From positions 2,067 to 66,066 of the forward strand of contig CAMUZZ010000001.1 in assembly GCA_947165355.1 (NCBI GenBank): a DNA stretch of 64,000 nt. The letters run 5' to 3'. Both the position numbers and the translations under genes were made by a program. This document shows positions 25,659 through 42,908 of this stretch, one piece after another (position 1 is the stretch's first letter; every line of letters begins with the position of its first letter). The DNA comes from an uncultured Clostridium sp. (GTDB lineage: Bacteria > Bacillota > Clostridia > TANB77 > CAG-508). The notes under the pieces were generated by a model, which searched no databases, had not been told where the DNA came from, and saw only the letters and a list, made by a program, of their open reading frames with translations.

Positions 25659-27503
25659 ATGTGTGGATTTGTAGGTTTTAGCAATTTAAATAAAAACATT
25701 TCATCAAAAGAAAATATTTACAGTATGAATGAAGCTATTGGAAAACGAGGTCCTGATGAAGATGGTTACTATTTAGAAAAAAATATATGTTTAGGTCACA
25801 AGCGATTAATTGTTTTAGATCCTAAAGGTGGCAAACAGCCTATGTCTTTTATGTATCAAAACAAACTATACACTATTGTATACAACGGTCAACTTTACAA
25901 TACCAAAGAATTACGCGAAGAGCTCGAAACTAACGGTTTTGAATTTGATTCTTATTCTGATACAGAAGTTCTTTTAAAGAGCTTCATATTTTGGAAATAT
26001 GATACTCCCCAAAAATTAAATGGAATATTTTCATTTGCAATATGGAACAGTTATGATAAAGAGCTGTTTTTAGCACGAGATCATTTTGGAATAAAGCCCT
26101 TATTCTATACACTTCAAAACAATACACTTATTTTTGCATCCGAAATAAAATGCCTTTTTAAATATCCTGGAATAGAGCCAAAATTAAACGATGAGTCTAT
26201 TGCAGAATTGTTTGGTATTGGTCCTGCAAGAACCGCTGGCAGTGGTATTTTTAAAGATATTCACGAAATAAAACCTGCTCACTACAGTATTTTTAACGAT
26301 GCAGGATTCCATACAGAAAGATACTGGAAACTTACTAGTAAAGTTCATTACGATAGTCTTGGAAAAACTTGCGATACCGTAAAATATTTGCTTGAAGATT
26401 CAATAAACAGGCAGCTTGCATCTGATGTTCCACTTTGTACATTTTTATCAGGCGGATTGGACTCAAGCATTATTACAACCTATGCGTCAAATTACTATAA
26501 TAAAAACAATCTTGGAACGCTAAATACCTACTCTGTAGATTACGTTGATAACGATAAAAACTTTCACGCTACAGATTTTCAGCCAAATTCGGATAATTAT
26601 TATATAAATTTAATGCAAGAAAAACTAAAAACCAAACATCATACTGTTGTTTTAGATACACCAGAGCTTGCTGAAGCACTTGAAGATGCAATGCTTGCAA
26701 GAGATTACCCTGGAATGGCCGATGTTGATTCATCATTGCTACTTTTTTGTAAAAATGTAAAAAAAGTAGCTACCGTTTCATTAACAGGAGAATGCGCAGA
26801 CGAAATATTTGGAGGTTATCCGTGGTTTTTTAGAGAAGATAGTCTAAATAGCAATACATTTCCTTGGTCTATTGCCTTAACAGAAAGACAAAATTTGCTA
26901 AATCCAGAAATAGCCTCAAAAATCAACTTAAAAAATTACGTTGATTATAGATATAATGAGAGCTTGTCTGAAGTAGAAATTCTTGATGAAGATTCTATGG
27001 AAACCGCTCAAAAAAGAAAGATATCATATTTAACACTCAACTGGTTTATGCAAACACTACTTGATAGATCTGATAGAATGGCAATGTACAATGGTTTTGA
27101 AATTCGTGTTCCATTCTGTGATTACCGACTAGTTGAATATGTATGGAATATTCCGTGGGAAATGAAGGCACTAAATGGTAGAGAAAAAGGCTTGCTAAGA
27201 TATGTAATGAAGGATGTTCTTCCAGAAGAAGTTGTTGAAAGAAAGAAAAGTCCATATCCAAAAACTTGGAATCCAACATATATGGAAACAGTAAAAAATA
27301 TGCTTTCAAAAATAATGGATGATAAAAACGCACCTATTAATAACTTGCTAAATAGAAAATACGTACTTGAAATATTAAATACAGATGGCAAAGCTTTTAC
27401 TAAACCGTGGTTCGGCCAGTTAATGACAGGACCTCAGCTTATTGCTTACCTATGCCAAGTTAACATGTGGCTTGAAAAATATAAACCTATCATCGAAATA
27501 TAG
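25659..27503 (+). CDS. asnB: Asparagine synthase (glutamine-hydrolysing) family amidotransferase
   Basis: N-terminal MCGF Ntn nucleophile, SGGLDSS PP-loop motif. RBS GGAGG. Confidence 0.9.
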   Translation: MCGFVGFSNLNKNISSKENIYSMNEAIGKRGPDEDGYYLEKNICLGHKRLIVLDPKGGKQPMSFMYQNKLYTIVYNGQLYNTKELREELETNGFEFDSYSDTEVLLKSFIFWKYDTPQKLNGIFSFAIWNSYDKELFLARDHFGIKPLFYTLQNNTLIFASEIKCLFKYPGIEPKLNDESIAELFGIGPARTAGSGIFKDIHEIKPAHYSIFNDAGFHTERYWKLTSKVHYDSLGKTCDTVKYLLEDSINRQLASDVPLCTFLSGGLDSSIITTYASNYYNKNNLGTLNTYSVDYVDNDKNFHATDFQPNSDNYYINLMQEKLKTKHHTVVLDTPELAEALEDAMLARDYPGMADVDSSLLLFCKNVKKVATVSLTGECADEIFGGYPWFFREDSLNSNTFPWSIALTERQNLLNPEIASKINLKNYVDYRYNESLSEVEILDEDSMETAQKRKISYLTLNWFMQTLLDRSDRMAMYNGFEIRVPFCDYRLVEYVWNIPWEMKALNGREKGLLRYVMKDVLPEEVVERKKSPYPKTWNPTYMETVKNMLSKIMDDKNAPINNLLNRKYVLEILNTDGKAFTKPWFGQLMTGPQLIAYLCQVNMWLEKYKPIIEI

Positions 27504-34772: not shown

Positions 34773-37400
34773 CTAAGATAGCTTTTCTTTAATTTTAACC
34801 AATGTGTTAAGAGCATCAATTGGAGTTAGTTGATTAAAATCTATTTTATCAATTTCATGTGCCACCTCTGCTATTTTAAAGTTATAGTTAACATCTTGCT
34901 CTGCTACCTGCTTTGGCTCTGAAATACCGCTTGCAATATTTATTTTATTGTATGCAATATTTTTTCTTTCAAGACTTTGTAGTATTTCATTTGCTTTTGC
35001 TGTAACTACCTGTGGAACCCCTGCTAGTTTAGCAACATGAACTCCGTAGCTTTCGTCTGTTCCACCATTTACAATTTTTCTTAAGAATACTATATCTTCT
35101 CCCTTTTCTTTAACTGCAATTGAGTAATTTTTTACTCCTTCTATCTTTTCTTCTAATTCAGTTAGTTCGTGATAATGTGTTGCAAATAATGTTTTAGCTC
35201 CGCATTTTTCTTTATCAGCAATATATTCAGCAACTGCCCATGCAATTGAAAGTCCATCGTACGTTGAAGTTCCCCTACCTATTTCATCTAGAATAACCAA
35301 ACTATTTTGTGTTGCTTCTTTTAAAATTGTTGCAACCTCCATCATTTCAACCATAAATGTACTTTGACCCATGCTTAAATCATCTGATGCACCAACTCTT
35401 GTAAATATTTTGTCAACAACGCCAATTCTTGCAGAACTTGCTGGTACAAAACTTCCAACTTGTGCCATCAAAGTTATTAAAGCTACTTGCCTCATAAAAG
35501 TTGATTTTCCAGCCATATTAGGCCCTGTTATTATTGCCAACCTGTTTTCATTTTTATCTAAATATGTATCGTTTGGAACAAAATTATTAGATGTAATCAT
35601 CTTTTCGATTACAGGGTGTCTTCCATCTTTTATATCTATTATTCCTTCTTCGTCAACACTTGGTTTTACATAGTTCATGTCTTCAGCAACATTTGCAAAA
35701 GATGTTAAAACATCTAGCGTTGATATTAAGTTTGCCGTTTTTTGAACCCTTTGAATTTCTTTTTCAATAGAATCCCTTATTTCACAAAAAGCATTGTATT
35801 CTAAAATAACAACTCTTTCTTCTGCACCTAAAATTTGATTTTCTAAGTTCTTAAGATCTTCTGTTATATATCTTTCTGCATTTGCTAAAGTTTGCTTACG
35901 AATATATCGTTCTGGAACCATTGATAAATTTGACTTTGTAACTTCTATAAAATATCCAAATACTTTGTTAAAACCAACTTTTAATCCTTTAATTCCAGTT
36001 GCTTCTCGCTCTTTATTCTCTAGGTCTATTATCCACTTTTTACCCTCAGTTGTAGCTTTTTTTAATGTGTCTATTTCATCATTGTAACCAATTTTAATTA
36101 TTCCTCCATCTTTAACACCAATTGGAGGTTCATCAACTATTGATTTTTCAATTATTTCGTATATATCTTCTAACGCATCTAGTCCTTCACAAATTCCGAC
36201 TAACATTTTACTTTTAGCACTAGCTAATACTTTTTTAATATCTGGTAACTGTTTTACAGAATTTTTTAGAGATATTAAATCCCTTCCATTAGCACTTCCA
36301 TAAGATATTTTTCCTGCAAGTCTTTCTATGTCATATACTTTTTTTAGTGACTCTATTAAATCTCCTCTTAACATTATAGAGTCTTTTAGCTCTTGTACTG
36401 CATCAAGTCTACCATTTATTTCGTTTATATCTATTAATGGATCATTAAGCCATCTTCTTAATAAACGACCACCCATTGATGTAGACGTTTTATCTAAAAC
36501 CCATAGAAGAGTTCCTTTTTTAGATTTATCACGCATCTTTTCGGTAATTTCCAAATTTCTTCTTGCATTTATATCTAGTGCCATATAACGAGTAGTATTA
36601 TATATTTTTATTGTATTAATATGATCTAAGCTTGTTTTTTGAGTATCTTCTAAATATCTTAGTAATGCATTTATAGAGTATATTGCAAGCTTTTTCTCTG
36701 GTAGTTTGTTATCTTGTATTTTCTCATTTTTATCATCAACAATTTTGTACATTCCAGATAGTAGCTCAAATTCTCCATCAAAGGCATCTTCGTCCTCTTT
36801 TGAAATATATGTATCAAAACGTTCTTTTATCTTTTCAATTTCAGTTTTGCTACTAAACATCATGTCTGAAACTATAATTTCTGCTGGAGAAAATCTTGCA
36901 ATTTCATCAAGCAACCTTTCAAAATTATTGTTTTCCATTATTTGAGTTGACAAAAATTCACCTGTTGAAACATCACAAACACTAATTCCAAAATACAATC
37001 CGTTTTTGTAAATTGACATTATATAGTTGTTTTTCTTTTCTTCTAAAAGGTTTGATTCCATTACAGTTCCTGGTGTAACTACCCTAACAACCTCTCTTTT
37101 AACAATTCCTTTTGCTGTTTTAGGATCCTCTACTTGCTCGCATATTGCTACTTTGTATCCCTTTTCAATAAGCTTTGCAATATAGCCTTCGGCTGCATGA
37201 TATGGAATTCCAGACATAGGAGCTCTTTTTTCTTGGCCGCAATCTTTTCCTGTTAATGTTAGCTCAAGCTCTCTTGAAACAATTTCGGCGTCATCGTAGA
37301 ACATTTCGTAAAAGTCGCCTAATCTATAGAATAAAACACAGTCATTATACTGTTTTTTTGTATCTAAATAATGTTGCATCATAGGTGAAAATTCTGCCAT
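34773..37400 (-). CDS. mutS: DNA mismatch repair protein MutS
   Basis: GPNMAGKSTFMRQ Walker A, ST(F/Y)MxEM, DEIGRGTSTYDG; full domain complement. Confidence 0.95.
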   Translation of the reverse strand: MAEFSPMMQHYLDTKKQYNDCVLFYRLGDFYEMFYDDAEIVSRELELTLTGKDCGQEKRAPMSGIPYHAAEGYIAKLIEKGYKVAICEQVEDPKTAKGIVKREVVRVVTPGTVMESNLLEEKKNNYIMSIYKNGLYFGISVCDVSTGEFLSTQIMENNNFERLLDEIARFSPAEIIVSDMMFSSKTEIEKIKERFDTYISKEDEDAFDGEFELLSGMYKIVDDKNEKIQDNKLPEKKLAIYSINALLRYLEDTQKTSLDHINTIKIYNTTRYMALDINARRNLEITEKMRDKSKKGTLLWVLDKTSTSMGGRLLRRWLNDPLIDINEINGRLDAVQELKDSIMLRGDLIESLKKVYDIERLAGKISYGSANGRDLISLKNSVKQLPDIKKVLASAKSKMLVGICEGLDALEDIYEIIEKSIVDEPPIGVKDGGIIKIGYNDEIDTLKKATTEGKKWIIDLENKEREATGIKGLKVGFNKVFGYFIEVTKSNLSMVPERYIRKQTLANAERYITEDLKNLENQILGAEERVVILEYNAFCEIRDSIEKEIQRVQKTANLISTLDVLTSFANVAEDMNYVKPSVDEEGIIDIKDGRHPVIEKMITSNNFVPNDTYLDKNENRLAIITGPNMAGKSTFMRQVALITLMAQVGSFVPASSARIGVVDKIFTRVGASDDLSMGQSTFMVEMMEVATILKEATQNSLVILDEIGRGTSTYDGLSIAWAVAEYIADKEKCGAKTLFATHYHELTELEEKIEGVKNYSIAVKEKGEDIVFLRKIVNGGTDESYGVHVAKLAGVPQVVTAKANEILQSLERKNIAYNKINIASGISEPKQVAEQDVNYNFKIAEVAHEIDKIDFNQLTPIDALNTLVKIKEKLS

Positions 37401-37502
37401 TTGATTACCTCTTTCTTTATTTCACATTGTTATTTCTAGCAGCCATTCTATATCATTTTTCGCACTTTTTCAACAAATTTTTAAATAAAAATAAGTCAAT
37501 GC

Positions 37503-37749
37503 GGTCGGTTCTGTTTGACACAAATCTAGAAACTTTACCAAAACAAAAAAAGATAGATACATATAAATGAAAACCGCGCAGTTTGGGAGCATGTATAAAT
37601 ATAATTTAAAGTTTATTAAATATTTACATTAAAATATATTTATTGCTTTAATAACAAATGCGACCAGTAAGGTTTGAATGGTTATGTATCTATCTTTTTT
37701 AGTTTTGAATTTTTTAAAGTACCCCAATTTTTGTCAAACAGAACCGTCC
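37503..37749. mobile_element. Roughly 250-bp structure with about 65-bp imperfect terminal inverted repeats enclosing copy A of the 98-nt element (MITE-like candidate)
   Basis: IR-L 37503-37567 and IR-R 37681-37749. They share GG(T/A)CGGTTCTGTTTGACA (17/18 match) and AAAAAAGATAGATACATA (18/18) in inverted orientation. Centre 37575-37672 is copy A (CGCGCAGTTTGGGAGCATGTATAAAT...AATGCGACCAGTAAGG). Confidence 0.5.
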
Positions 37750-37762
37750 CTAATGACTCTCA

Positions 37763-39139
37763 TTAACTTATTTTTCCTTTTAAGTACCACATGTGCTCTG
37801 ATACTATTTCAAGATTTGTCATGCTTCCAATTAAACTTTCATCTCCTTCAAAGTTTACTACTTTGTTAGAATCGGTTCTTCCAGTTAGCATTTCATCGTT
37901 GTTTTTACTTTTTCCTTCTACCAATACTTTTTGTATTGTTCCTACATATTTTTTGTTATTCTCGTCTATTTGACTTTCAACAAGAGCTTTTAATCTATCA
38001 AATCTTTTATGCTTTACGTCTTCAGGAATTTGGTTTGGCATCTTATCTCCTGGTGTACCAACCCTTCTTGAATATATAAACATATATACTTGCTCAAAAT
38101 TAACTTTTCGTACAACATCTAATGTGTCTTCGAAGTCTTCTTCAGTTTCGCCAGGAAATCCTACTATAATGTCTGTTGATAAAGTTAAATTTGGTATTGT
38201 AGATTTCATTTTATCTACCAAACTTAAAAATTGCTCTTTTGTATATTTTCTATTCATAATTTTTAAAACAGCAGAGCTTCCAGATTGCAATGGTAAATGA
38301 ACTAATTTGCACACTTTCTCACAATCTCTAATTGCTTCTATTACATCATCTGTAAAATCCTTTGGATGTGGAGAAATAAATCTTATTCTCTCGATTCCAG
38401 AAATTTTGTTTACAGCTCTCAGTAATTCTGAAAACTTATTTATTCCTAAATTTCCATTTCCTTTGTATGAATTCACATTTTGTCCCAAAAGCGTTACTTC
38501 TTTATATCCGCTTCTTGCTAACTCTTCAACCTCATTTATAATGTCTTCAGGATCACGGCTACGCTCTCTACCACGAACATAAGGTACTATACAATAACTA
38601 CAGAAATTGTTGCATCCATTCATAATCGTAACAGAAGCTTTTATTGTATCATTTCTTTTTATTGGAAGGCCTTCAATAACCTCACCATCTATATCTAAGA
38701 TGTCCATTATTTTTTCTTTGTTACATAAAACGTTGTATAAATCTTCTGGCAACTTATGAAGAGTATGTGTTCCAAATATTATATCTACATAGTTATAGCT
38801 TTGTTTTATTTTATCAACAATATGTTTTTCCTGCATCATACAACCACATATTGCAATAACTGTTCCATTTTTCTCGCGAAGTCTTTTAACTTCTCCAAGT
38901 TTACCAAAAAGTTTATCTTCAGCATTTTCACGAACGCAACATGTGTTAAATATTATGAAATTTGATTCGTTAATATTATCAGTTTTTGTATACCCCATTG
39001 ACTCAAGCATGCCACATATCTTTTCCGAATCATTTTCATTTAATTGGCAACCCATTGTAAAAATTGTATATTTTAAATTTTTGCCAGCATTTAATCCATT
39101 AACTTTTTCTATAAAATCTCTCTGATTTCCTATATCCAA
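37763..39139 (-). CDS. miaB: tRNA (N6-isopentenyladenosine37) methylthiotransferase MiaB
   Basis: MTTase N-terminal cysteine cluster, radical SAM CxxxCxxC (CNNFCSYC), TRAM domain. Confidence 0.9.
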   Translation of the reverse strand: MDIGNQRDFIEKVNGLNAGKNLKYTIFTMGCQLNENDSEKICGMLESMGYTKTDNINESNFIIFNTCCVRENAEDKLFGKLGEVKRLREKNGTVIAICGCMMQEKHIVDKIKQSYNYVDIIFGTHTLHKLPEDLYNVLCNKEKIMDILDIDGEVIEGLPIKRNDTIKASVTIMNGCNNFCSYCIVPYVRGRERSRDPEDIINEVEELARSGYKEVTLLGQNVNSYKGNGNLGINKFSELLRAVNKISGIERIRFISPHPKDFTDDVIEAIRDCEKVCKLVHLPLQSGSSAVLKIMNRKYTKEQFLSLVDKMKSTIPNLTLSTDIIVGFPGETEEDFEDTLDVVRKVNFEQVYMFIYSRRVGTPGDKMPNQIPEDVKHKRFDRLKALVESQIDENNKKYVGTIQKVLVEGKSKNNDEMLTGRTDSNKVVNFEGDESLIGSMTNLEIVSEHMWYLKGKIS

Positions 39140-39333
39140 CTTTGCACTCCCCTTATATTAACAACTCATCTTACTTCTATAATTTTTTAATAGTGCTATT
39201 TTACTACATTTTTCAAGTATTATCAAGATGCAAGAGCTAATCTAGCATTACAGTACTTCTCTTTGCCCAAAAATAAAAAAAGAACAATTAAATAAATCCT
39301 TGAAATTTTGTTGTTTTTTGTGGTTTATTCAGT

Positions 39334-42300
39334 CTACTCAGCTAATTGTGGTTTTATTAATATTTCAAATTCTTTTTCTAGTCCTTCAGCAGAGATTTTT
39401 ACTTTGTTATAACCTACTTTCACATTGTTTTTATCATATGAAACCTCATAGTTATCGACTTTGGCATATATACCATTTCCATATTTTGCTTCAACAATCA
39501 TGCCATCAAAGTTTATTTCTCCTCGTGTAAATCTGTCATTATCTGGTAATTTAGCAATTCTTAATTCTATAGGCTTTATAGTATCTGACTCTTTTAGTAT
39601 GTACGTTACATCATCATCGTCCCTAATAACATATACTTTACTGTTATTGCTTACTCTTGTTTTAGATGGAATATCTCTATTCATCTTTTTTCCATCAATT
39701 TCTAGTACATATCTTTTTAATTCCATTGAATATAAGAAAATCTCTTTGTTAGCTGGTACTAATAAATCTTGTTCCGCAATATTTAGTCTTATATTTTCTG
39801 GAAGAGCATCAAGTTCTTCCTTTGTATATAATTCACCATACACATCAGCAAAAACATCAATATTCTTTGAAACATTATTAAAATTATAATCACCTTTTTG
39901 AATTTTTCCTAGATCAATTGCTATGCCATTTCTTACAGAACTAATTTTACTTAAATCAATTTTATTTCCTTCAACCCTATAACGCCTAATTCCAGGAAGT
40001 GCGAAAAACTCGCTTGTTTCATCCGCATTACAATAGCTAATATCTAATTTCCATAAACTTGGTAGTTCATCTAACTTGCTAATGTTTCTTTCTACTTTAT
40101 TATTTGCTAAAGATAGCTGCTTAATACTCTCATTTTTAGTTGGGAGCATATTTACATCTACAATGTTGCAGTTGTCTACATTTAAAACAACTATATATTT
40201 ATCATTTAATGATCTAAAATCACTTATATTATTACCACTTAAATTTAAGTTTCTTATTTCATCAACATCATCTAAAAACGATAAATTTGTTATTTGATTA
40301 TTAGCTAAATTCAAATTGTATAAAGACTTCTTAAAACAAGTAAATCCAGATGTATTACAATCTGATAAGTCTAAATATGTTATTTCGTTCATATTCAAAC
40401 TGTTAAGATCTTTAATATTTTTATTGCCTGCCAAGGATAAAGTAACAATTTTTGGTAGTTGATTTACATATTGAATGCTTTCAACGTTACAATTTGCAAT
40501 GTTTAATACTATTAAGTTTTTACAATTTTCGTATCCTTTAACATTTTCATTATTTTCCAATTGTAAGTTCTCTAGGCTGCTTAAAGACCCCAAAGAAGAT
40601 ACATCGGATACATTATTATTTCTTAAATCTAAATATGTTAGCTTTTTACAATTTGCAAGTGGAGTAACATCTGTAATATTATTATTTCTAGCATCTATGC
40701 CTTCCAAATTCTTTAAATACTCTATTCCTTTTAAGGATATTGCATTTTTATTTGCTATTGATATAACAGTAATATCATTTAACGTATCTTCGTTTATGTA
40801 ATCAACTCCATTAACTGTCCATGTTTGGTATTCATCTTTTATGGCATCTTCTATGGCTTTATTACCTATTTCTGATAACTTGAATCCATCTGCACCAACT
40901 TTTACAACTCCGTTCATATTTCTGTTTATAAACTCATCTTCATATGAAACATATAAACATCCTTTATCTCCCCAATTTTCTCCCCATGAGTTTAAGCATA
41001 TATATGCACCATTTTTTTCTGGCACCTTTCCACTTTCAGATTTAAATTTCTCTTTTGGATAATCATCATCCCATCCAATGACTGAAATACAATGACTTGA
41101 TGCTCTAGTACTACTATCAGTTCTATAAATGTTAACACCACTACATACAATACTTGCAGTAACCGATCCATAATTCATTATATGTCTTTTTACTATATTT
41201 TGGTATTCATTAAACTTTTGGTTTCCAACTTCTGATTTTGTAAAATCGGGAAATTCAACCGTATCTATATTTCCAATATCTACTGTGTCTACATTGAAAA
41301 ACACATTATATTCATCCTCTTTGTAGTCTTTATACTTTAATGTATCTTCCTTAGCTAGAGCTCCACTTCCATTTACATAGTCTCTCCATGTATCAAATCC
41401 TCCACCTGTGTGCAAATTTCTTCCTAAACCAGAACCCAATTCTTCAGATGTCATATAGTCTACATATATTTCAGAAAAATCATAATCTTCATTTTGTGTT
41501 AACGCTAAGTTTGTTTCTAAGGCTGTATTTGAGGCGAAGTTCCAGCATAACCCAAATCCAGCTTGATTTTCTACTTTAACATTAATTTTATCTCTTAAAT
41601 CAAATTTTCCTGGTAAAACCTTGTTTTCTGCCTTTTCGGTAGGATTATTGTTGTTATTTACTTCATTTTTTGTTTCATTATTATTTGTGTTACTGTTTTC
41701 GTTGTTATTTACGTTATTATTCACATTGTTGTTTACGCCGTTATTTACGTTATTATTCACATTGTTGTTTACGCCGTTATTTACATTATTATTTACATTA
41801 TTGTTTACGCTGTTATTTACATTATTGTTTACGTTATTATTTACATTATTGTTTACGTTGTTATTTATATTATTGTTTACGTTGTTATTTATATTATTGT
41901 TTACGTTGTTATTTACGTTATTATTTACATTGTTATTTTCGTTGTTATTTACGTTATTATTCACATTATTGTTTGAGTTATTAGCTATTTCATTTGTGTT
42001 GTTACCTTCATTATTATTTTGTTTTATATCAGGGCTTGATTCTTTTTCTACCTCTTTTAGCTCACCTAAGTCTTCATCCTGATCTTTTTTTATTATCTCA
42101 AATTCAGCTTCATCTACTTTTTTCTTTCTTGGTATAGATTCAATATCCTTCTTTTGGTCATCCGGCATACTCACATAATGTTTGTACTCATCTGTGTAAT
42201 TACGTTCATCAAGTTTTTCTTTAATAATTTCAGCTGTATCTTCTCCTTTTTTCTCGGCTTCCTCAATTTCATCTTGCATTATTACAGCACGCCTTGTGTT

Positions 42301-42546
42301 CTCATCTTTAATTTTTTCTGCTAAATAAAGCTCTTTTTCTTTCTTAGCGTTATATTCCAGTGTTTGATATGTTTGGTCTGAAGTAGTAATCTTGTTTAGA
42401 ATCGATTTAGTTATCAAAAAACTAAGTAAAAACAAGATTAATCCAACTATAATAACTATTATAGCAATTAATCCTTTTCTTGATTTCTTTTTTTCCATTA
42501 ACTTACCTCCTATATTTTCTCGCTTTTGTATATACATTTTACTCAA
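39334..42546 (-). CDS. Large membrane-anchored surface protein: Asn-rich repeat linker, papain-like C1 cysteine peptidase domain, leucine-rich repeats, C-terminal Ig-like domain
   Basis: N-terminal TM anchor; (NNNV)n run; QAGFGLCWNFA (catalytic Cys), SSHCISVIGWDD (His), NSWGENWGDKGC (Asn-Trp) motifs; about 12 LRR units (L..L.L..N.I.D). Confidence 0.8.
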   Translation of the reverse strand: MSKMYIQKRENIGGKLMEKKKSRKGLIAIIVIIVGLILFLLSFLITKSILNKITTSDQTYQTLEYNAKKEKELYLAEKIKDENTRRAVIMQDEIEEAEKKGEDTAEIIKEKLDERNYTDEYKHYVSMPDDQKKDIESIPRKKKVDEAEFEIIKKDQDEDLGELKEVEKESSPDIKQNNNEGNNTNEIANNSNNNVNNNVNNNENNNVNNNVNNNVNNNINNNVNNNINNNVNNNVNNNVNNNVNNSVNNNVNNNVNNGVNNNVNNNVNNGVNNNVNNNVNNNENSNTNNNETKNEVNNNNNPTEKAENKVLPGKFDLRDKINVKVENQAGFGLCWNFASNTALETNLALTQNEDYDFSEIYVDYMTSEELGSGLGRNLHTGGGFDTWRDYVNGSGALAKEDTLKYKDYKEDEYNVFFNVDTVDIGNIDTVEFPDFTKSEVGNQKFNEYQNIVKRHIMNYGSVTASIVCSGVNIYRTDSSTRASSHCISVIGWDDDYPKEKFKSESGKVPEKNGAYICLNSWGENWGDKGCLYVSYEDEFINRNMNGVVKVGADGFKLSEIGNKAIEDAIKDEYQTWTVNGVDYINEDTLNDITVISIANKNAISLKGIEYLKNLEGIDARNNNITDVTPLANCKKLTYLDLRNNNVSDVSSLGSLSSLENLQLENNENVKGYENCKNLIVLNIANCNVESIQYVNQLPKIVTLSLAGNKNIKDLNSLNMNEITYLDLSDCNTSGFTCFKKSLYNLNLANNQITNLSFLDDVDEIRNLNLSGNNISDFRSLNDKYIVVLNVDNCNIVDVNMLPTKNESIKQLSLANNKVERNISKLDELPSLWKLDISYCNADETSEFFALPGIRRYRVEGNKIDLSKISSVRNGIAIDLGKIQKGDYNFNNVSKNIDVFADVYGELYTKEELDALPENIRLNIAEQDLLVPANKEIFLYSMELKRYVLEIDGKKMNRDIPSKTRVSNNSKVYVIRDDDDVTYILKESDTIKPIELRIAKLPDNDRFTRGEINFDGMIVEAKYGNGIYAKVDNYEVSYDKNNVKVGYNKVKISAEGLEKEFEILIKPQLAE
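41650..42010. repeat. Imperfect 12/24-nt tandem repeats encoding the Asn-rich (NNNVNNNV...) linker
   Basis: Unit GTTGTTATTTAC-GTTATTATTCAC and variants repeated about 25 times. Also generates the spurious plus-strand ORFs 41621..42082 and 41670..41984. Confidence 0.8.
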
Positions 42547-42666
42547 TCTTTATTTCAAATAAGTAAAAAAGATGTAAAAAAGTTGTAAAATATGTACTTT
42601 TAAAGCAAGATTTTTCTTATGTTCTATACAATTATTACATAATTATTTTTAAGTATCAATATTATT

Positions 42667-42705
42667 TGAATACAAAAAAAAACGAAATAGTTTATCTATT
42701 CCGCT
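42667..42705 (-). terminator. rpmE rho-independent terminator
   Basis: Minus-strand RNA: CGGAAUAG-AUAAA-CUAUUUCG followed by U9. Confidence 0.65.
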
Positions 42706-42707
42706 TT

Positions 42708-42908
42708 TTATTTGATACCATATTTTGTTTTGAATTTTTCGATTCTTCCACCTGTTTTCTCTATTTTTAAGTTGTTTGTGTAGAATGGATGGCATTTTGA
42801 ACAAGAATCAACTTTCATATCTTTTTTTGTTGAATTTGTTTTAAAAACATTTCCGCAAGCACAAGTAATTGTTGCTTCTTGGTAACCTGGATGTATTCCT
42901 TCTCTCAT
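42708..42908 (-). CDS. rpmE: 50S ribosomal protein L31
   Basis: MREGIHPGY ... CxxC zinc-ribbon form, 66 aa. Confidence 0.9.
   Translation of the reverse strand: MREGIHPGYQEATITCACGNVFKTNSTKKDMKVDSCSKCHPFYTNNLKIEKTGGRIEKFKTKYGIK

Follow-up and report, generated by a model that had tools for sequence, protein, structure and literature searches.

A papain-family peptidase–leucine-rich repeat protein with an asparagine-rich repeat linker, encoded between rpmE and miaB in an uncultured Clostridium sp.

The C1 peptidase–LRR gene and the domains of its product

A stretch of 64,000 nucleotides from an uncultured Clostridium sp. (contig CAMUZZ010000001.1, positions 2,067 to 66,066; hereafter the window, meaning the whole stretch of DNA that was analysed) carries, between rpmE and miaB, a gene whose product joins a papain-like (C1) peptidase domain to internalin-type leucine-rich repeats (LRRs), with a long asparagine-rich linker encoded by tandem repeats in front of the peptidase. 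A six-frame list of open reading frames (ORFs) gave a single long ORF at 39334..42546 on the minus strand, which reads 1070 aa from a TTG codon. The ATG at 42498 was preferred to TTG 42546 as the start because a GGAGG motif lies upstream of it (42506-42510, spacer 7 nt) and because the N-termini of all aligned homologues coincide with its Met. The ORF of the initial annotation is thus real, but the likelier start gives 1054 aa, which makes the protein large and not "giant" as first described. Residue numbers refer to the 1054-aa form unless stated otherwise. The features of the gene and of its immediate surroundings are as follows.

39157..42665: lineage-specific segment between rpmE and miaB, delimited by blastn and tblastn against the related contigs L081-L087 and L090
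39334..42498, minus strand: C1 peptidase–LRR coding sequence; stop codon 39334-39336, frame open upstream to TTG 42546
42409..42474, minus strand: predicted N-terminal signal-anchor, aa 9-30, GLIAIIVIIVGLILFLLSFLIT, after MEKKKSRK; from hydrophobicity, position conserved across family members
42049..42222, minus strand: conserved pre-linker segment, aa 93-150, NYTDEYKxYxxLxDExKxxxExIPRKxKVD and then a helix; from the family alignment
41644..42021, minus strand: Asn-rich linker, aa 160-285, 126 aa with 85 Asn; from repeat analysis, predicted disordered
40909..41616, minus strand: C1A catalytic domain, aa 295-530; from Pfam PF00112, PDB matches and Foldseek
41563-41565, 41545-41547, 41092-41094 and 40990-40992, minus strand: catalytic codons of Gln312, Cys318, His469 and Asn503, respectively
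39964..40890, minus strand: internalin-type N-terminal cap and ~13 LRRs of ~22 residues each, aa 537-845; from LRR_4 and internalin matches and AlphaFold
39355..39924, minus strand: two predicted all-beta domains, aa 859-958 and 963-1048; from AlphaFold secondary structure, predicted local distance difference test (pLDDT) score 60-91
42631..42659, minus strand: promoter-like site of the C1-LRR gene, TTGATA, 17-nt spacer, TG-extended AATAAT; consensus scan, 10 of 12 matches
42677..42709, minus strand: intrinsic terminator of rpmE (ribosomal protein L31); terminator scan

The promoter-like site, which directly follows the rpmE terminator, is no more than a pattern match, such sites being no commoner in this region than in shuffled sequence. 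Two plus-strand ORFs over the repeat, at 41621..42082 and 41670..41984, were rejected as mirror images of the Asn codons, and no paralogue of the C1-LRR gene was found in the window.

The catalytic domain was recognized at several levels. Peptidase_C1 (PF00112) matched aa 311-536 of the 1070-aa form with 48.1 bits against a cut-off of 20.7, and the best match among solved structures was Cwp84 of C. difficile, with an E value of 2e-15 for the single sequence and 5e-34 for a profile of 16 family members. Gln312, Cys318 and His469 were aligned to Gln110, Cys116 (Ala in the crystal) and His262, the active-site residues in the Cwp84 numbering (PMC4089489), and Asn503-Ser-Trp-Gly corresponded to the papain Asn175 motif and also aligned to cathepsins. 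These four residues occupy the papain positions Gln19, Cys25, His159 and Asn175 and were invariant in a 12-member family alignment. The motifs that the initial annotation had singled out, with Cys in QAGFGLCWNF, His in SHCISVIGWDD and Asn-Trp in NSWGENWG, are the catalytic ones, and the alignment revealed no substitution in the Gln312/Cys318/His469/Asn503 set. Supportively, the AlphaFold model of the domain had a pLDDT of ~90, and Foldseek placed it closest to 4ci7 and 4d59, both of Cwp84, followed by procathepsins; the E values of 1e-11 to 1e-13 to Cwp84, procathepsin L and others indicated a papain-like two-lobe fold for the predicted model. Sequence and predicted fold place the protease domain in the papain family (MEROPS C1A).

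Downstream of the catalytic domain, LRR_4 was found in seven stretches (Pfam, E 3e-20), and the Listeria internalins InlA, InlB and InlH matched by sequence with E values of 1e-31 to 1e-19, their residues 28-120 aligning with aa 563-667. NCBIfam internalin models scored 56-58 bits, far under their cut-offs of 1050-1600. The AlphaFold model of aa 529-1054 (mean pLDDT 84) began with a helical cap, continued with 13 LRR strands at a spacing of ~22 residues and ended in two all-beta domains; the cap and LRR region reached a pLDDT of ~90-97, and its top Foldseek matches were InlA. About 12 internalin-like LRRs had been counted at the outset, close to the ~13 seen here in the LRR_4 matches and the model strands. 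The C-terminal Ig-like domain proposed at the same time holds as far as the predicted all-beta fold goes and is weakly supported as Ig-like, the Big_3 match of the second beta domain (obtained with the C-terminal 77 residues) having an E value of 0.012-0.09, under the Pfam cut-off.

At the N-terminus, a single strongly hydrophobic segment was found, with a 19-residue Kyte-Doolittle mean of 3.4, and no other segment of the protein exceeded 1.0. Its place is kept in all family members, in keeping with the signal-anchor that had been annotated; membrane insertion with the remainder outside, and retention of the segment without cleavage, would follow from this hydrophobic profile. A search of the protein with Pfam and NCBIfam and by motif check found no SLH, CWB2, LysM, GW or sortase signal, among them no LPXTG-like motif.

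Between the anchor and the linker lies the conserved pre-linker segment, in which Y, Y, P and R were invariant in 16 homologues. In the AlphaFold model of aa 93-541 it was predicted with a pLDDT of 77-93, including the non-helical IPRK stretch. The N-terminal 176 aa, and the segment within them, had no Pfam match, and a profile of the segment found no propeptide in the PDB at E values up to 10. No recognizable I29-type or Cwp84-type propeptide was found either: Foldseek aligned the catalytic domain only (~260 columns), and the 16-member family profile likewise aligned only the catalytic domain to PDB entries, with no propeptide homology. The segment may nevertheless be a pro-segment. Its family motif (V/I)IPRK may resemble the Cwp84 stretch around Val66-Ile67, which is a lead and not a test.

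Among characterized proteins, the nearest is Cwp84, a surface-layer-associated C1A protease (4ci7, 4d59), which shares the Gln/Cys/His active site and has the closest solved catalytic domain. It is an extracellular Firmicute protease whose mature domain is preceded by an N-terminal part without catalytic function, as the protein described here would be. In Cwp84 the signal peptide is cleavable, the propeptide has 59 residues, and a lectin-like domain and three CWB2 repeats for wall binding are present; the extended part of the propeptide occupies the active-site groove, where Val66 fills the S2 subsite (PMC4089489). The window protein differs from it in having a predicted membrane anchor, an unrelated pre-linker segment, the Asn tract, an LRR solenoid and beta domains, with an identity of ~23-30%. 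No CWB2 (PF04122) was found in it by Pfam and NCBIfam scans, and the protease is followed by the internalin cap and LRRs, not by a lectin-like domain, so that Foldseek covered ~260 of the 454 residues of 4ci7. Without CWB2 or a lectin-like domain, it does not belong with the Cwp84-type cell-wall proteins. With the Listeria class 1 internalins (InlA, InlB, InlH) it has in common an N-terminal helical cap, ~22-residue LRRs and, as predicted here, beta-rich domains after the LRRs. Those proteins, however, contain no enzyme domain and combine a Sec signal peptide with a C-terminal anchor of the LPXTG or GW type, whereas the window protein appears to be anchored N-terminally, has its protease ahead of the LRRs, and lacks LPXTG and a second hydrophobic segment. 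The presence of a protease and the lack of a sortase or GW anchor exclude it from the internalins.

The asparagine-rich linker and its repeat array

The linker had been described as an approximately 120-residue (NNNV)n sequence encoded by about 25 imperfect 12/24-nt copies at 41650..42010, and both the 126-aa Asn-rich tract and the tandem array behind it were recovered. The regular core was delimited more narrowly, as 23 consecutive in-frame 4-codon (12-nt) units at 41698..41973, mostly NNNV. Tandem Repeats Finder reported the array at 41676..41982, with a period of 24 nt in 12.5 copies or of 36 nt in 8.5 copies, 80-82% matches, no indels and scores of 311-327. The densest stretch of the linker holds 30 Asn per 40 aa, against at most 13 in the 53 other ORFs of at least 150 aa in the window. 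In the AlphaFold model of aa 93-541, the linker had a pLDDT below 50 and is predicted to be disordered, between two confidently folded flanks. When the family profile was aligned to PDB entries, the N-termini of mature cathepsins fell on LPxKFDLRD immediately after the Asn tract; the tract therefore abuts the mature protease N-terminus and lies in pro-region territory.

The DNA of the array proved less regular than the peptide. Eleven distinct 12-nt variants occur among the 23 units, no run of identical units is present, and the self-identity of the array was 0.73 at an offset of 12 nt, rising to 0.81 at 24 and 0.83 at 36. Exact direct repeats extend at most to 47 nt at offset 24 (41915..41869) and to 45 nt at offset 36 (41784..41740), and they are the record of recent in-frame duplication. 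Comparison of units by the Nei-Gojobori method gave a proportion of synonymous differences (pS) of 0.88 and of nonsynonymous differences (pN) of 0.074, with a pN/pS of 0.085 that is indicative only, the units being non-independent samples; neighbouring units differed at synonymous sites almost always, and more than random pairs did. The low pN/pS and the synonymous differences between units thus show that the peptide is regular and the DNA is not. Taken together, the array bears the signature of an older repeat whose Asn/Val pattern has been kept and which has undergone a few recent higher-order duplications, and it behaves like a minisatellite, not like a classic slippage tract. The array is a poor candidate for slippage by a single 12-nt unit; the identical stretches of 45-47 nt could plausibly undergo unequal exchange, though it should be infrequent. 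The initial description of the repeat as a "classic substrate" for slipped-strand length variation is accordingly overstated, given the 11 variants in 23 units and the offset-12 identity of 0.73 versus 0.81-0.83. The earlier description of the gene as a whole was accurate, and its slippage reading is plausible only in a weak, evolutionary sense.

Considered as a polypeptide, the Asn-rich repeat linker is an ordinary low-complexity spacer, though an unusually long and regular one. It resembles the repeat regions with which other Gram-positive surface proteins span the wall. Among these, the Ser-Asp (SD) repeats of the S. aureus ClfA and Sdr proteins are likewise low-complexity, disordered spacers built from in-frame tandem repeats, placed between the anchoring end and the functional domains and free to vary in length. 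The resemblance lies in the disordered tandem-repeat spacer between the anchor end and the functional domains; SD repeats adjoin a C-terminal sortase anchor and are glycosylated, whereas the linker here is N-terminal, uncharged and Asn-rich.

The rpmE–miaB locus and the C1-LRR family

Homology of the window to related contigs at the DNA level stops at 42665, just past the rpmE terminator, and restarts at 39157; the segment between these points holds the C1-LRR gene and its promoter only. Six contigs, L081-L086, were found through the exact 66-aa L31 sequence (an exact look-up of MiaB gave no record) and are 75-90% identical to the window in their DNA. In this sister lineage the rpmE–miaB interval contains murT, gatD, alr, a gene for a 163-aa protein, a NUDIX gene and an ABC/FtsX gene, and the C1-LRR gene is absent from it; conversely, murT, gatD, alr and the other genes of that interval were not found anywhere in the 64-kb window. 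Two further contigs carry the gene at the same locus. In L087, the homologue P0001 lies directly upstream of miaB, after murT-gatD-alr, and in L090, P0002 lies between rpmE and miaB, alone there as in the window.

The divergence of these positional orthologues far exceeds that of their neighbours. Compared with L087, the identity was 88% for MutS, 91% for MiaB, 94% for L31, 84% for Cdd and 73% for GtrA, but 40% for the C1-LRR protein; the picture for L090 was similar, its orthologue being likewise 40% identical to the window protein, and P0001 and P0002 were 42% identical to each other. Over the related loci together, the flanking proteins ranged within 94-100% (L31), 85-92% (MiaB), 88% (MutS), 84-92% (Cdd) and 73-80% (GtrA). 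By domain, the pre-linker segment was 60% identical to that of P0001, the C1 domain 54%, the LRRs 36% and the C-terminal part 27%. From these comparisons, the gene, which occupies a variable rpmE–miaB locus, appears to be dispensable and either to diverge very fast or to be replaced repeatedly. The gene could not be linked to a known defence system or a mobile element: PADLOC gave no match, phage and plasmid collections yielded nothing but partial matches, to the LRRs alone or to the C1 domain alone, at less than 32% identity, and no integrase or transposase was evident at the locus. As a separate difference nearby, the related contigs have a DUF4160/DUF2442 pair between miaB and mutS (L081 19288..19804), which is absent from the window, where the gap at 37400..37763 is 363 nt.

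Close relatives were sought widely and were not found in the collections covered. The exact protein, in three start variants, was absent from a collection of 15 billion sequences; close-relative scans of GTDB species genomes and JGI metagenomes returned none; and the nearest relative among 5.8 billion protein clusters, GTDB species genomes and JGI metagenomes was 38-40% identical. No conspecific sequence was present in the collections searched. With the linker removed from the query, the best protein match was 40% identical and the best matches covered 98% of that query. The word-indexed protein search listed 29 relatives with the linker in the query versus 174 without it, the whole protein giving only 29 because poly-Asn words filled the candidate list; low-complexity linkers are better removed before such searches. 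A family-profile scan of GTDB found relatives of at most 38% identity, mostly in gut-derived metagenome-assembled genomes labelled Clostridia or Bacilli, whose sources include Hadza people, deer, sheep, rabbit and mouse.

The homologues form a family of more than 100 protein clusters (P0001-P0103), mostly from gut metagenomes and exemplified by the NCBI entry 'hypothetical protein J6K42_04785 [Clostridia bacterium]'; a literature search on C1-LRR fusions found nothing specific. Members share the architecture from end to end, namely an anchor, the segment NYTDEYKEYxKLSDEEKxKxExIPRKxKVD, a variable linker, LPxKFDLRD with the C1 domain, the cap and LRRs, and the beta domains. On this shared layout the window protein can be assigned to an unnamed C1-LRR family of gut Firmicutes, with an identity to the other members of at most 40% and without the extra C-terminal module or modules that most of them carry. 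It stops right after the Big_3-like domain (39334..39355), and P0001 and P0002 go on for ~190 residues, in which a module characterized by '...TLxFxDxxLYN...IPYExLYDIxxL...IEFSE...' occurs twice; most other members have one copy of such a module, and these extra modules had no Pfam match. The pre-linker segment is missing from P0014, P0016 and P0036.

At the linker site the family is hypervariable, with lengths from ~10 to ~140 aa. Apart from the two positional orthologues, linkers of other members are 20-90 aa long and mostly rich in Glu, Lys and Asp, and E dominates in 30 of the 37 low-complexity ones. The linker of P0037 is an independent (ENNN)n tract and that of P0014 consists of five 14-aa repeats, TQNKEEQDKTPEDD, built independently, and the near-identical homologues P0003-P0012 differ at the same site by a 4-aa in-frame indel (EEKE). 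The longest linker of the family, and the only regular NNNV one, is that of the window protein, and the finding that its tract is an in-situ expansion at a family-wide hypervariable linker site is new. P0018 and L005 are also among the cases with repeat or Asn-rich linkers at or near this site. The close homologues P0003, P0004 and P0009 differ, too, in a second low-complexity insert, acidic and Tyr-rich, in their LRR region (~aa 640-680; for example DDEFNYGEDKGDYDGGDDYWG versus NYDEEDYYDGDYDYWG), which is not in the window protein.

Proposed arrangement, alternatives and genomic setting

We lean towards reading the gene product as a papain-like cysteine protease that is extracellular and tethered to the membrane, with the LRR and beta domains engaging a specific protein partner and the Asn tract serving as a disordered spacer. 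In this reading, the domain architecture, the catalytic residues, the anatomy of the repeat and the synteny come directly from the data, and topology, activity, binding of a target and spanning of the wall are inferred. An uncleaved N-terminal signal-anchor would keep the protein in the cytoplasmic membrane, a helical segment and the 126-residue disordered Asn-rich tether would take the remainder out through the Gram-positive wall, and the catalytic domain would then be followed by the internalin-type LRR solenoid and the two beta domains; the most plausible task of the LRR and beta domains would be to capture a particular protein that is then cleaved, or to attach the cell to it. The tether would have originated in situ, through expansion of a 12-nt unit and later 24- and 36-nt duplications, in a short linker upstream of the mature protease N-terminus, and its length would be expected to change on an evolutionary time scale, through occasional events of unequal recombination and not through frequent slippage. 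The position of the Asn tract between the membrane anchor and the catalytic domain is that of a spacer. The putative "adhesin/protease" role that had been assigned initially is deduced only from the domains.

Several observations weigh against this arrangement. The choice between a signal-anchor and a cleaved signal peptide was made by eye; the scans and motif check described above found no C-terminal wall-binding module; and if the pre-linker segment were a propeptide removed on activation, the mature enzyme would be released, not tethered. The linker is ~10 aa in the positional orthologues P0001 and P0002, which have no Asn tract, so that a long tether is not required. The 40% identity of these orthologues could come from replacement by a distant family member and not from in-place divergence, the pN/pS of the units is, as noted, only indicative, and all family members are unnamed or 'hypothetical' in the records.

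Three other explanations were weighed against the tether, and not all of the four are mutually exclusive. The array might be a contingency tract, in which slipped-strand mispairing often adds or removes 12-nt units in frame and stalk length varies between cells and strains. The ~25 units follow one another in frame without indels, two exact duplications of 45-47 nt are recent, the near-identical homologues P0003-P0012 differ by a 4-aa indel at the same linker site, and repeat linkers have arisen independently in P0037 and P0014. The units are nevertheless heterogeneous (11 variants in 23), with an offset-12 identity of 0.73 that is lower than at offsets 24 and 36 and with no run of identical units; the synonymous differences between neighbours disfavour misalignment by one unit; the collections searched hold no conspecific sequence that shows polymorphism; and a 12-nt unit is unable to switch expression on or off. 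Because the Asn/Val pattern has been kept while the units differ synonymously, occasional unequal recombination is expected instead of frequent slippage, and we regard the contingency tract as improbable. A further explanation, that the tract has no function, arose as a side effect of replication errors and AT-biased mutation and is tolerated at an unconstrained linker site, would fit an AT-rich genome (26-35% G+C), a linker site that is free in length and composition across the family, with orthologues that are nearly linkerless, and the predicted disorder of the tract. It is, however, hard to reconcile with the pN/pS of 0.085, which suggests that the Asn/Val pattern is maintained, with the lack of a comparable Asn tract in the other ORFs of the 64-kb window, and with the E-dominated linkers in 30 of 37 cases, in view of which Asn is not what AT bias by itself would predict; we find this explanation doubtful.

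The remaining explanation bears on the tether itself. Residues 93-150 might dock on the catalytic domain as a pro-segment with an inhibitory or foldase role, cleavage near LPGKFDLRD then activating and releasing the protease-LRR module, and the Asn tract would be a flexible connector, a disposable pro-region linker rather than a stalk. The segment and the tract sit exactly where the papain-family pro-region does, with the mature cathepsin N-termini aligning just after the tract; the segment has the invariant Y, Y, P and R and is modelled at a pLDDT of 77-93 though ~140 disordered residues away from the catalytic domain; and Cwp84, the closest solved relative, has a cleaved propeptide (PMC4089489). 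Yet the segment has no sequence or fold match to known propeptides (PDB profile at E up to 10; Foldseek), and it is lacking in P0014, P0016 and P0036. We consider such a zymogen rather unlikely and retain the tethered protease as the preferred interpretation.

Three of the findings are new, namely the in-situ expansion of the linker, the position of the tract against the mature N-terminus, and the divergence of the orthologues at rpmE–miaB. The last of these, extreme orthologue divergence at a variable locus, is the most interesting point and lay beyond the reach of a reading of the letters of the window alone. Orthologues of ~40% identity beside flanking genes of mostly ~90%, together with a sister lineage without the gene, are what is typically seen in surface molecules under conflict. 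The turnover of mucus, antibodies and surface layers is shaped by the extracellular proteases of gut anaerobes, few of which are characterized; the present family, which is sizeable and entirely unnamed, joins a Cwp84-like protease to an internalin-like binding module. Should the LRR module direct the protease to particular targets, the family would offer a tractable case in which a fused binding domain guides an enzyme to its substrates. More speculatively, C1-LRR proteins could be uncharacterized, hyper-diversifying, tethered 'targeted proteases' of gut Firmicutes, in which the LRRs pick a host or competitor surface protein, the rpmE–miaB locus is a hotspot that swaps and loses divergent alleles under immune, phage or competitor pressure, and the repeat linkers tune reach; as a whole, this is a long shot.

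Beyond the C1-LRR locus, the genes of the window include polA, an LtaS-like sulfatase, lepA, asnB, ligA, mutS, miaB, xseA, whiA, recO, era and 6S RNA, and the window is core chromosome; the G+C content of the genome was put at 29%, with values of 26-35%. The envelope genes point to a walled Gram-positive cell. In the window they comprise an LtaS-like sulfatase and a GT4 transferase, in the relatives murT/gatD/alr and a peptidoglycan-binding hydrolase. GC skew is negative throughout and nearly all genes are on the minus strand, so that the window appears to lie on one replichore. Three further features were recorded.

61419..61604, minus strand: 6S RNA; Rfam gathering threshold passed, 98 bits
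43318..43389, plus strand: tRNA gene between rpmE and the GtrA-like gene; Rfam gathering threshold passed
25659..27503, plus strand: asparagine synthase gene (asnB-type), one of the few plus-strand genes

The presence of asnB near a gene rich in Asn codons is probably a coincidence.

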